The position numbers and the translations under genes were made by a program. The notes below the pieces were generated by a model. It saw only the letters and a list, made by a program, of their open reading frames with translations, searched no databases and was not told the origin of the DNA. 64,000 nt of DNA, taken from the NCBI RefSeq assembly GCF_030013205.1, contig NZ_CP122648.1. One strand, written 5' to 3'. Origin of the DNA: Escherichia coli. GTDB lineage: Bacteria > Pseudomonadota > Gammaproteobacteria > Enterobacterales > Enterobacteriaceae. Within the stretch, counting starts at the first letter, position 1. The number at the start of each line of letters is the position of its first letter. This document shows, piece by piece, positions 9,639 through 61,965 of the stretch.

Positions 9639-9769
9639 AAAGATTAATAATAATTGATATAACAATGATTCTTATTATCAATATTATGGCGGGCCAGAGC
9701 AAGCAGTAATTTGTTGAGAAGACAACAAGTTGCGCAGAAATGCCCATTCCGTCAGGAATGGGCACGCAT

Positions 9770-28636: not shown

Positions 28637-28773
28637 CGTGTAATGGCTGCATGAAATAAACAATAAAATATAAATAACATTATCAGCCTGCTGACGGCTT
28701 GAAGAGAGTCACAGTATCTTGTGCAACATTATTGGAAAGCGTGAGGGGCGAGGTAGCGAAGCGGAAAAATGTT

Positions 28774-28879
28774 AAAAAAAAGCCCATCGTGGGAGATGGG
28801 CAAAGACTACACACAGCAATTCGTTGTTTCACTCAGGGGATTTCCATGCTTATAAATCAATATGTTGATTTATAACCGT
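28774..28879 (-). ncRNA. rprA: Small regulatory RNA RprA
   Basis: Reverse complement matches RprA (ACGGTTATAAATCAACATATTGATTTATAAGCATGG ... GCCCATCTCCCACGATGGGCTTTTTTTT), between ydiK and ydiL. Confidence 0.85.
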
Positions 28880-33622: not shown

Positions 33623-34029
33623 TATGGAAACGAAAAATCACCCTGGAAGCACTGAATGCTATGGGTGAAGGAAACATGGTGGGGTTGCTGGATATTCGCT
33701 TTGAACATATTGGTGATGACACCCTTGAAGCGACAATGCCAGTAGACTCGCGGACAAAGCAGCCTTTCGGGTTGCTGCATGGAGGAGCATCCGTGGTACT
33801 GGCCGAAAGTATCGGTTCCGTTGCCGGTTATTTATGTACCGAAGGTGAGCAAAAAGTGGTTGGTCTGGAAATCAATGCTAACCACGTCCGCTCGGCACGA
33901 GAAGGGCGGGTGCGCGGCGTATGCAAACCGTTGCATCTCGGTTCGCGTCACCAGGTCTGGCAGATTGAAATCTTCGATGAGAAAGGGCGTTTGTGCTGTT
34001 CGTCACGATTAACGACCGCCATTTTGTGA
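33619..34029 (+). CDS. menI: 1,4-dihydroxy-2-naphthoyl-CoA thioesterase (hotdog fold)
   Basis: 136-aa ORF; start overlaps ydiJ stop. Confidence 0.92.
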   Translation: MIWKRKITLEALNAMGEGNMVGLLDIRFEHIGDDTLEATMPVDSRTKQPFGLLHGGASVVLAESIGSVAGYLCTEGEQKVVGLEINANHVRSAREGRVRGVCKPLHLGSRHQVWQIEIFDEKGRLCCSSRLTTAIL

Positions 34030-34128
34030 CGTTGTCACCAGAAAAGTGTGACGCATATTGCTTTTGGTCATTATCTGCACAGTAAACGGTGGTATACTGT
34101 GCAGGTCTTGTCTAAAAGCGAGGATGCT

Positions 34129-34317
34129 ATGTCTACTCAACTTGATCCCACCCAGCTGGCCATTGAATTTTTACGCCGTGACCAGAGCAATCTTTCACCT
34201 GCCCAATATCTCAAACGTCTGAAACAACTAGAACTTGAATTTGCTGACCTGCTTACTCTCTCTTCTGCTGAATTAAAAGAAGAAATCTACTTTGCCTGGC
34301 GTCTGGGCGTGCATTGA
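34129..34317 (+). CDS. ydiH: Uncharacterised small protein YdiH
   Basis: 62-aa protein from internal ATG (MSTQLDPTQ) of 89-aa ORF. Confidence 0.8.
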   Translation: MSTQLDPTQLAIEFLRRDQSNLSPAQYLKRLKQLELEFADLLTLSSAELKEEIYFAWRLGVH

Positions 34318-34510
34318 TTCTGACTTAATGCCGCAATTTCGCCAAATCGACCTGGATTAACCTCCGTCCAGGTTCGATAACCTTCTTAATACTGCTTATC
34401 TACCCGCCTGATATTGTTCAAAAATAATACTAATCGCAGTTTGTGTTAAAACGGCGGGTTAGCTTTATGAGATTATTCTTATCGCCCCTTCAAGAGCTAA
34501 GCCACTGAGA

Positions 34511-34583
34511 GTGCCGGAGATAAGCGCCGGATGGGGTAGAAACCCTTAAGCCTGTGTCGCACAGACTTAAGGGTTTTCTTATT
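34511..34583 (+). ncRNA. rydB: Candidate small RNA (position and structure consistent with RydB)
   Basis: Structured segment ending in CCCTTAAG...CTTAAGGG hairpin plus TTTTCTT, between ydiH and sufA; RydB sequence not recalled, ends approximate. Confidence 0.4.
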
Positions 34584-34670
34584 TCTGAACGCTGCACTTT
34601 TTTACCTATCTCTTAAATAGTCATTTTCAATACAACTTTTTCTTTTTCATCACAGCCTTAATGCTCCTTA

Positions 34671-34686
34671 GATAATAATCATTATC
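34671..34686. promoter_or_regulatory. Fur-box-like palindrome, distal, suf upstream region
   Basis: GATAATAATCATTATC resembles Fur consensus GATAATGATAATCATTATC. Confidence 0.45.
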
Positions 34687-34803
34687 TAACAATGAGATAC
34701 CTAATTCTTAGCGTGCCTGTTAACCCACACATCAGGGTCTATGCTTATTAAAAGCAGGAAAAAAGCATGTTTTACGGTAAAGCCCCTGCGTTTGCTGGGT
34801 TGA

Positions 34804-34820
34804 ACTGATAATCATTATCA
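34804..34820. promoter_or_regulatory. Fur box at the sufA promoter
   Basis: CTGATAATCATTATCAC about 50 bp upstream of sufA ATG; suf operon is Fur-repressed. Confidence 0.6.
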
Positions 34821-34865
34821 CTAACATGCTGTTATACGCTGAAAGCGATGAAGTGAGGTAAATCG

Positions 34866-35234
34866 ATGGACATGCATTCAGGAACCTTTAATCCACAGGA
34901 TTTCGCCTGGCAGGGCTTAACGCTGACACCCGCAGCCGCTGTCCACATACGCGAGCTGGTGGCAAAGCAGCCGGGTATGGTCGGCGTGCGCTTAGGCGTG
35001 AAGCAAACGGGCTGCGCGGGCTTTGGCTATGTGCTCGACAGTGTTAGCGAGCCGGACAAAGACGATCTGCTGTTTGAACACGACGGCGCGAAGCTGTTTG
35101 TCCCGCTGCAAGCGATGCCGTTTATTGATGGCACGGAAGTCGATTTCGTTCGTGAAGGACTTAATCAGATATTCAAATTTCACAACCCTAAAGCCCAGAA
35201 TGAATGTGGCTGTGGCGAAAGCTTTGGGGTATAG
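34866..35234 (+). CDS. sufA: Fe-S cluster assembly A-type carrier
   Basis: 122-aa ORF with C-terminal CGCGESF motif. Confidence 0.95.
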
Positions 35235-44320: not shown

Positions 44321-44560
44321 CCATTCAGGATGAGGCGATAAGCTTCATCCTGATATTCTTGCTTCAGTTGCGGTCCAGTTAATCATTCTAAATAACAACT
44401 GCTGAAATTATACGAATTTCGGTATGTATTTTAATTTATAACGATAATGTTATTTTTATTTTCTGCAATGAACGTCACAAATAATTGTCGTTTAAGTTAA
44501 ATTTATTTCAAATGATAATAAATATCAGTTCACTTATAATTTCTTGCTTTGTGATTTTAA

Positions 44561-52248: not shown

Positions 52249-52554
52249 TCAGGCGAGTTTTGCCTGACTGATTTGACTAAGTGGCTCATTGACATCGAAA
52301 ACTTTGGCGACAACTTCCTCAACGCCGAGATTTTTCAGTCGGGCAGTATGTTTTTCCAGATAGGCAAGGGCGTTTTTTTCATCAGTAAAAAGGTAGATCC
52401 CACCGGCTTCGTGGTTCTTTTCACTTTCTGTCCATACCTTCCACAGAAAACCAGGTTCCTGATTAATCGACTCAGCAAGCGGTTTAAGCTGCTCAGCCAT
52501 TGCGTCGCCAAATGGGCCATTGAAAGAAAAATGAAGTTGTAACAAAGTTGCCAT
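52249..52554 (-). CDS. ydhR: Putative monooxygenase YdhR
   Basis: 101-aa ORF matching K-12 YdhR. Confidence 0.88.
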
Positions 52555-52662
52555 AGCGATTCTCCTTCTGATAACGCATACGAAGACAGTGTAAATCTTT
52601 TAACGTATTGGATACAGAGAAGAAACAGAGGGAAAAAAGGAGAAGACCAGATTAAGAAAATC

Positions 52663-52739
52663 TGGTGCGTCCGAGTGGACTCGAACCACCGACCCCCACC
52701 ATGTCAAGGTGGTGCTCTAACCAACTGAGCTACGGACGC
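52663..52739 (-). tRNA. valW: tRNA-Val (anticodon GAC)
   Basis: Reverse complement reads GCGTCCGTAGCTCAGTTGGTTAGAGCACCACCTTGACATGGTGGGGGTCGGTGGTTCGAGTCCACTCGGACGCACCA; valV/valW label by synteny. Confidence 0.93.
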
Positions 52740-52743
52740 AGGA

Positions 52744-52820
52744 TGGTGCGTTCAATTGGACTCGAACCAACGACCCCCACCATGTCAAGGTGGTGCTCTA
52801 ACCAACTGAGCTATGAACGC
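52744..52820 (-). tRNA. valV: tRNA-Val (anticodon GAC)
   Basis: Reverse complement reads GCGTTCATAGCTCAGTTGGTTAGAGCACCACCTTGACATGGTGGGGGTCGTTGGTTCGAGTCCAATTGAACGCACCA; 4-nt spacer to neighbour. Confidence 0.93.
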
Positions 52821-61412: not shown

Positions 61413-61710
61413 TCCATTTCACTCCAGACCCTAACTTCAGCTCCTGCAAAATCGCAAGGTAAACGTTTGCCTTTACACACCTTACGCACAACAAAAGTGT
61501 TGCGGTACGCCGGAAAAACGACACGGAGCGTCAGGAAGGGGTCAATGGCCAGTACGCAAATAGTGTAAGCGTGGAATTTTGGCCGATCTTGACGAAAAGG
61601 GGAAGTGGTAAAAACACTTATCATTATAAATGACGGGAGATTTTTTCATCACAGTGTGTAAAAATGCGTAATATCACTTTTTGTGTGGTAATAAAAAAGG
61701 AGAAAACTTG

Positions 61711-61800
61711 ATGAGCACCGACCTTAAATTTTCACTGGTAACAACGATTATCGTCCTCGGTTTGATCGTGGCCGTGGGTTTGACTGCCGCGCTGCACTGA
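61711..61800 (+). CDS. ynhF: Small membrane protein YnhF (29 aa)
   Basis: ATG at 61711 after GGAGAAAA RBS encodes MSTDLKFSLVTTIIVLGLIVAVGLTAALH; below ORF-track size cutoff. Confidence 0.7.
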   Translation: MSTDLKFSLVTTIIVLGLIVAVGLTAALH

Positions 61801-61965
61801 TTTCCTCTCGAGGGAGCGCGTTCTCCCTCGCATCTCCTTCCTGTTTGTTAGCAAAATGGCAAAAGTGTTTTCTCTTTTTGTTATTTTCATTTTTTTGTGA
61901 TTGCTGTCATGCTTTCGCCACTTTAATGAATATCGCGTAATGACGCGAAGAGGTGGAGATAAGGC

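Follow-up and report, generated by a model that had tools for sequence, protein, structure and literature searches.

The window studied here is a stretch of 64,000 nucleotides (64 kb) of Escherichia coli DNA, and our analysis concerns the intergenic spacer that separates ydiH from sufA, the first gene of the sufABCDSE operon. An earlier account made without database searches (the sequence-only reading) had described this spacer as a 548-bp region with a high density of signals. Its extent was borne out, with ydiH ending at 34317 and sufA starting at 34866, which leaves a spacer of 548 bp (34318-34865). The locus is the well-studied ydiH-sufA stretch of E. coli, with the gene of the small RNA RydB and a multi-regulator switch of suf, and its central content is already known. 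The spacer very probably consists of two separate and already described modules, namely, the rydB transcription unit and the sufABCDSE control region. The region is indeed dense in signals, since it contains sites for OxyR, IHF, IscR, and Fur together with the small RNA gene. The flanking genes are as follows.

34129-34317, plus strand: ydiH coding sequence, 62 amino acids, the upstream neighbor (open reading frame [ORF] and translation; annotated in RefSeq for K-12 and for an identical strain)
34866-35234, plus strand: sufA coding sequence, first gene of sufABCDSE (ORF and RefSeq annotation)

The gene order, ydiJ-menI-ydiH-spacer-sufA-sufB, with all genes on the plus strand of the window, matches that of K-12 (ydiJ-menI-ydiH-rydB-sufA), and the Shine-Dalgarno sequence of sufA, GAGG, is found at 34855-34858. 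The spacer is 100% identical to the corresponding segment of several E. coli chromosomes and 99% identical to that of K-12 MG1655, and it was found in 5421 of the 5426 complete E. coli genomes. Its GC content amounts to 40%, compared to 49.5% for the window. Nothing is annotated within the spacer in the annotation by the Prokaryotic Genome Annotation Pipeline (PGAP) of a strain identical to the window, and rydB is omitted in PGAP-annotated E. coli genomes. In K-12, RefSeq places rydB (b4430) at 1764713-1764780 of NC_000913.3, on the minus strand (68 nt), which corresponds to window positions 34472-34539. A 12-bp hairpin (34346-34378, -17 kcal/mol), located 29 nt past the ydiH stop codon and without a clear U-tract, may act as a weak ydiH terminator with some read-through toward rydB. 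The comparative analyses described below are based on the sufA upstream regions of 80 Enterobacteriaceae species; the suf region itself was aligned over approximately 280 nt upstream of sufA in 18 species from 6 genera.

The rydB small RNA and its transcription unit

The upstream module comprises the following features.

34433-34452, plus strand: mar/sox/rob-box-like element ATCGCAGTTTGTGTTAAAAC, a putative activator site (conservation, fixed spacing to the -10)
34468-34476, plus strand: putative extended -10 of rydB, TGaGATTAT (near-invariant in 22 species)
34484-34544, plus strand: mature RydB small RNA, 61 nt (Rfam RF00118, Term-seq 3' end, core conservation, closing-stem covariation)
34540-34587, plus strand: intrinsic-terminator hairpin and U-tract of the rydB unit (folding, covariation, U-tract)

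The sequence-only reading had suggested a small RNA such as RydB in the spacer, and the Rfam scan that it had proposed as a check was positive. The match to RF00118 (rydB) is located at 34484-34544 on the plus strand, covers the full model (positions 1 to 61 of 61), and has a score of 81.6 bits (gathering score, 50; E = 9e-18). The gene sequence is identical to that of K-12 (b4430; synonyms tpe7 and IS082), in which the gene is likewise flanked by ydiH and sufA. The only difference from RydB of K-12 concerns coordinates, since those of the 68-nt RefSeq entry are shifted with respect to the Rfam and Term-seq ends, by 12 nt on the 5' side and by 5 nt on the 3' side. Term-seq data for K-12 contain a single, very strong rydB 3' end at 1764708 on the minus strand, with 2.2 and 4.1 million reads in two entries (Adams et al. 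2021, PMC7815308 supplement). This position corresponds to window position 34544, where the RNA ends in ...GGGGUAGAAACC; the register was checked against the lpp terminator entry of the same table. Because the 3' end maps to 34544, the mature RydB is the 61-nt RNA 34484-34544, which is exactly the extent of the Rfam match. The RNA of about 70 nt ending at the terminator, as expected in the sequence-only reading, is replaced by this shorter species.

RydB was found in the sufA upstream regions of 22 of the 80 species. The carriers are Escherichia species, a subset of Citrobacter, Salmonella enterica subsp. arizonae, Leclercia, Pseudenterobacter, and Silvania. For 20 further genera, no Rfam rydB match was obtained within 1.5 kb upstream of sufA, and copies elsewhere in those genomes are possible. 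The core of the gene (34484-34536) is highly conserved among the 22 carriers, with a majority fraction of 0.95. Pairing of the closing stem (CCCC/GGGG) is supported by compensatory changes at three pairs of alignment columns: (i) C-G is replaced by U-A at columns 3/53 in 3 species, (ii) columns 2/54 change in 1 species, and (iii) G-C is replaced by A-U at columns 1/55 in 2 species. The inner hairpins are invariant and hence uninformative as to covariation.

Downstream of the core, two 17-nt arms (34540-34556 and 34560-34576) pair with a single mismatch around a loop of 3 nt to form a hairpin of -22 kcal/mol, and a U-tract (TTTTCTTATTT, or UUUUCUUAUUU) comes next. All 22 species have this hairpin behind the rydB core; 11 of its stem pairs show compensatory double changes, and in four species the stem has a wholly different sequence at the same place. 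This covariation, together with the retained position, indicates that the rydB unit has conserved the hairpin as part of its structure, and RepRanger lists rydB with a rho-independent terminator. The intrinsic terminator that the sequence-only reading had placed at 34543-34580 as the end of the structured RNA is therefore real and covarying, but the body of RydB lies just 5' of it. A simple terminator scanner reported no terminator in the segment 34000-35000 and missed this hairpin, probably owing to the internal stem mismatch. The K-12 Term-seq tables contain no 3' end at 1764660-1764689, a range that covers the U-tract, and the sole end lies upstream, at 1764708, a pattern consistent with a rapid removal of the hairpin. 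The hairpin (34540-34576) is thus not part of the mature RydB, and we infer that it is removed after termination. A further probable effect of the terminator is to protect the suf control region against transcription coming from upstream.

Alignment of the sequences upstream of rydB revealed two conserved blocks at a fixed spacing, separated by a 16-nt spacer that is not conserved (majority fraction of 0.88 in the blocks versus 0.47 in the intervening spacer). Block 1 (34433-34451, ATCGCAGTTTGTGTTAAAA) has 2 mismatches to the mar/sox/rob box AYNGCACNNWNNRYYAAAY and no more than 3 in any of the 22 species. In block 2, TGAGA..AT is near-invariant, and variation is confined to the two middle positions of the hexamer, which are the least constrained ones. 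From the geometry of this putative -10, transcription of rydB is predicted to start near 34483-34484, and 34484 is also the first position of the Rfam match. Between the end of the 20-bp box and the -10 hexamer lie 18 bp, and Martin and colleagues are said to have reported in 1999 that a spacing of 18 to 19 bp is that of class II mar/sox/rob promoters. As in such promoters (micF, fumC), the 20-mer upstream of rydB covers the position of the missing -35, 18 bp from the -10; it differs from them in that nearly all 22 species have GCAG or GCAA in place of GCAC. In microarray experiments, RydB was among the SoxR-dependent, paraquat-responsive RNAs (PMC2064960). We therefore put forward, as a tentative proposal that we hold slightly more doubtful than probable, that a conserved mar/sox/rob-type box would drive rydB at class II spacing, which would fit the reported SoxR-dependent induction. 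Two points weigh against this proposal: (i) matches to AYNGCACNNWNNRYYAAAY are no more frequent in the window than expected by chance (14 versus 17), so that a match to the box alone is not significant, and (ii) a 2024 preprint lists RydB as an RNA without known targets or transcription factors (PMC11230228). A candidate CRP site upstream of rydB was discarded, as it consists of one TGTGT half-site without a TCACA-like partner at the expected spacing.

Further searches concerned the possible function of RydB. A role as a small-protein gene was rejected, since the core contains no ATG on either strand and the sole overlapping ORF is a 35-amino-acid frame with a GTG start on the opposite strand. 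The predicted duplex energies of RydB with the sufA leader and with the ydiH and sufB start regions were no better than those of shuffled RydB, and no antisense match of at least 9 nt to the invariant loop of RydB was found elsewhere in the window. To our knowledge, lowered rpoS expression is the sole effect of RydB reported. In Salmonella, rydB was annotated as 105 nt, a length that covers the terminator, and enrichment of RydB with Hfq was weak (4 reads versus 10) (PMC2515195), which is consistent with an RNA that lacks a 3' U-tail.

Taken together, these data are best explained by the following order of events in the rydB unit (about 34433-34587, plus strand). Transcription driven by the activator-type box and the extended -10 would yield a primary RNA of about 100 nt that would end at the conserved intrinsic terminator. 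The terminator hairpin would then be removed, giving rise to the very abundant 61-nt RNA (34484-34544), the ends of which are paired in the closing stem.

The control region of sufABCDSE

The downstream module contains the following elements.

34594-34640, no strand: OxyR site (ORE-I), conserved block CCTATCTCTTAAATAGTCATTTTCnATACA with the arrangement CTAT-N7-ATAG-N7-C(A/T)AT
34677 to about 34702-34707, no strand: probable IHF site (ORE-II), conserved block with the core TAACAATGAGATA at 34687-34699
34729-34760, no strand: conserved block CAGGGTCTATGCTTATTAAAAG... between the IHF and IscR sites
34779-34804, no strand: IscR type-2 site (ORE-III), overlapping the -35; conserved block with 0 mismatches, scored at 34779-34804, to AWARCCCYTSNGTTTGMNGKKKTKWA, which we take to be the type-2 consensus
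34800-34827, plus strand: sufA core promoter and proximal Fur operator, with the putative -35 TTGAAC (34800-05) and the putative -10 TAACAT (34822-27)

The alignment of the suf region showed discrete conserved blocks that coincide with the OxyR, IHF, IscR, and Fur motifs. The three ORE elements were reportedly placed at -236 to -197, -156 to -127, and -56 to -35 by Lee et al. 2004. With a putative sufA start at about 34834, which would also fit the -10 TAACAT, these positions fall on conserved blocks. The core promoter is an invariant stretch, TTGAA-TGATAATCATTATCACTAACATG-GTTAT, at 34800-34838. Within the conserved IHF block, CATTAT.TATCAATG.ATT, the Citrobacter core TATCAATGCATTG matches WATCAANNNNTTR perfectly, whereas the E. 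coli core has 2 mismatches. The block between the IHF and IscR sites contains the sequence GTCTATGCTTA, which is invariant in the alignment.

Fur sites were identified as matches with at most 2 mismatches to the 7-1-7 consensus TGATAATNATTATCA, a 15-mer; the 13-mer GATAAT-N-ATTATC was also used. At this threshold, the 64-kb window contains 4 matches, compared to 0.23 expected. Both Fur-like palindromes named in the sequence-only reading (34671-34686 and 34804-34820) are present, the proximal one with 0 and the distal one with 2 mismatches to the 7-1-7 consensus. The proximal box (34806-34820, TGATAATCATTATCA) is located between the putative -35 and -10. In all but one of the 80 Enterobacteriaceae species (79), a box with 0 to 2 mismatches occurs between -49 and -63 relative to the ATG, and in the exception (L058) the sole match is located at -158. 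The proximal box is the conserved Fur operator of the sufA promoter.

This architecture is that of the K-12 sufABCDSE promoter, of which all four elements are likewise present in the window, conserved across genera, and arranged in the order described: OxyR far upstream, an IHF bend, IscR at the -35, and Fur (PMC8593673, PMC4155840, PMC12683245). OxyR binds far upstream of the suf promoter (PMC8593673, PMC4155840), and activation by OxyR requires IHF (PMC8593673). The type-2 IscR site of sufA lies within its -35 (PMC8593673), and Fur represses suf by way of a Fur box located in its promoter (PMC12683245, PMC4676285). NsrR has also been reported as a suf repressor (PMC8593673); our motif scans for NsrR gave weak matches only, also in the conserved block at 34729-34760, the best full site having 4 mismatches and overlapping the OxyR site and the best half-site being specific to E. 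coli. Applied to the control region (about 34594-34865), this scheme would imply that OxyR bound far upstream at ORE-I is brought to the promoter by the IHF bend at ORE-II, that apo-IscR activates suf from the type-2 site at the -35, and that Fe-Fur represses it from the perfect operator between the -35 and the -10.

The distal Fur-like box and the origin of RydB

Two further elements are found upstream of the sufA core promoter and concern the second Fur-like palindrome.

34671-34687, no strand: GATAATAATCATTATCT, the distal sequence that resembles a Fur box, with a polymorphism at 34679 (mismatches: 1 to the 13-mer, 2 to the 15-mer)
34649-34676, plus strand: promoter-like ATCACA-16-GATAAT, the -10 of which is the 5' half of the distal box (consensus scan)

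The distal box (34671-34686, GATAATAATCATTATC) would be located at about -163 to -147 from the presumed sufA start, where it overlaps only a weak promoter-like motif. The sequence-only reading had regarded the two palindromes as tandem Fur boxes, and this part of it stands for the proximal operator and not for the distal box, which is absent outside Escherichia, polymorphic, and overlaps the IHF element. (i) At a threshold of 3 mismatches, the distal box is absent in E. albertii and at the corresponding position in about 75 non-Escherichia species, in contrast to the near-universal proximal box. (ii) It overlaps the conserved IHF (ORE-II) site on the A/T-rich 5' side of the latter, and across genera only its 3' part, CATTAT, is kept, which belongs to the IHF block. 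(iii) Its Fur-specific 5' half is variable even inside Escherichia. The distal box is thus most likely a lineage-specific, drifting resemblance that is evolutionarily unconstrained and not a conserved Fur operator, as judged from these comparisons of sequence.

Position 34679 illustrates this variability. The window has T, which as an exact 61-mer occurs in 1977 of 5414 E. coli genomes (about 36%), and the alternative C, found in K-12, occurs, likewise as an exact 61-mer, in 3259 of them (about 60%); G characterizes one divergent E. coli lineage. With T, the sequence that flanks the IHF site on its 5' side is one step nearer to a Fur box than with the C of K-12. Of the other Escherichia species, three have T and one has C, which suggests that T is possibly the older state and that the majority allele of E. 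coli would have moved off the Fur consensus.

The strongest competing explanation is that Fur uses the distal box as a second working operator, at the least in strains with T at 34679, to which this one belongs, and from there competes with IHF at ORE-II or polymerizes toward the proximal site, so blocking activation by OxyR and IHF when iron is plentiful. Several observations speak for it and weigh against the box as an unconstrained resemblance. It has a single mismatch to GATAAT-N-ATTATC and fits the classical 19-position consensus at 14 positions. It is also beyond chance for the spacer, since in dinucleotide shuffles (n = 2000) one Fur match with at most 2 mismatches was seen in 0.5% (P of about 0.005) and two were never seen. 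Furthermore, it shares an exact 12-nt direct repeat, ATAATCATTATC, with the real proximal operator, the two copies starting 133 bp apart, and it overlaps the IHF element. Fur is also reported to occupy many weaker sites in vivo (PMC4676285). Fur might hence bind the distal box weakly or in some strains only. Chromatin immunoprecipitation sequencing places Fur at sufABCDSE, and sites 133 bp apart are below its resolution (PMC4676285). Against a working operator stand the phylogenetic distribution described above, the location of the variable positions in the Fur-specific half, and the fact that the weaker C allele is the more frequent one and is that of K-12, in which suf regulation was worked out. 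In addition, a review describes a single suf Fur box (PMC12683245), and a literature search on two Fur boxes at sufA, judged on titles and abstracts, returned nothing relevant. We consider a working second operator unlikely, and a strain-specific Fur function at this box would be similarly improbable. That T-allele strains, about one-third of E. coli, have a functional second operator at which Fe-Fur competes with IHF and vetoes OxyR-dependent suf induction would be a conjecture of quite low probability. If it were true, one common single nucleotide polymorphism would rewire, in a strain-specific manner, how Fe-S cluster assembly responds to iron and peroxide.

A second alternative concerns the upstream module; it derives RydB from the 3' untranslated region (UTR) of the ydiH mRNA, as a stable fragment left by decay, and takes the rydB hairpin for the ydiH terminator. 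It draws on the location of ydiH on the same strand 166 nt upstream of RydB, on the hairpin that follows ydiH (34346-34378), the lack of a good U-tract in which makes read-through plausible, and on the mature 3' end, which is made by processing in any case. However, the two-block, promoter-like sequence directly upstream of the rydB core is conserved at fixed spacing, in contrast to the spacer within it. Moreover, the unit of promoter, core, and terminator (about 155 nt) is found behind different upstream genes depending on the lineage, namely, ydiH in Escherichia and Salmonella, a gene for a LysR-type regulator in C. sedlakii, and menI in Leclercia and Silvania, which argues against RydB as a mere fragment of the ydiH 3' UTR. 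Conversely, Intestinirhabdus possesses ydiH and has no detectable rydB. We thus regard this origin as highly unlikely and retain RydB as the product of a transcription unit of its own.

In Salmonella enterica subsp. arizonae (L026, 616-1500), rydB adjoins ydiH and is located about 800 bp from sufA, with an ORF of 92 amino acids on the opposite strand between them. This separation of rydB from sufA indicates that the rydB unit and the suf control region are separable modules.

Least probable is the proposal that GATAAT of the distal box is the -10 of a secondary upstream sufA promoter (34649-34676), possibly repressed by Fur and giving a leader of about 180 nt: a consensus scan picks the hexamer pair ATCACA-16-GATAAT, and genomic systematic evolution of ligands by exponential enrichment (SELEX) with the RpoD holoenzyme gives exactly this pair as the sufA "constitutive promoter" (PMC3946193), but only 9 of 12 positions match, the scan of 34000-35000 returned 3 promoter-like matches versus 1.3 expected, SELEX peaks are broad and the sufA motif was assigned there by sequence search, the hexamers lack conservation beyond Escherichia, in contrast to the invariant downstream promoter, and no transcript start for it was found in the literature examined.

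Other matches in the window and significance

Two Fur matches are located elsewhere in the window. The first (9666-9680, TGATTCTTATTATCA, 2 mismatches) lies 28 to 42 nt upstream of hemP/ydiE on the minus strand and is a plausible candidate for the Fur operator of this hemin-uptake gene. The second (44513-44527, TGATAATAAATATCA, 1 mismatch) is located in the spacer between fumD (ydhZ) and ydhY, about 250 nt upstream of ydhY. Other Rfam matches at gathering level (28772-28879 on the minus strand, 61413-61803 on the plus strand, and 52538-52820) correspond to RprA, STnc550, and two tRNAs. A match to the HPnc0260 "antisense RNA" (52538-52701) overlaps a tRNA gene on the opposite strand and is probably no separate feature.

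Since rydB and the control of suf by Fur, OxyR, IHF, and IscR have been described for about two decades, the discovery value of this locus is small. The analysis adds (i) corrected coordinates of RydB, (ii) the population genetics of the distal box, which should not at present be treated as a regulatory site, and (iii) a testable hypothesis on the rydB promoter. For RydB, an orphan small RNA, the conserved mar/sox/rob-type box, together with a mature RNA that lacks the 3' U-tail typical of Hfq-dependent small RNAs, would provide a lead.

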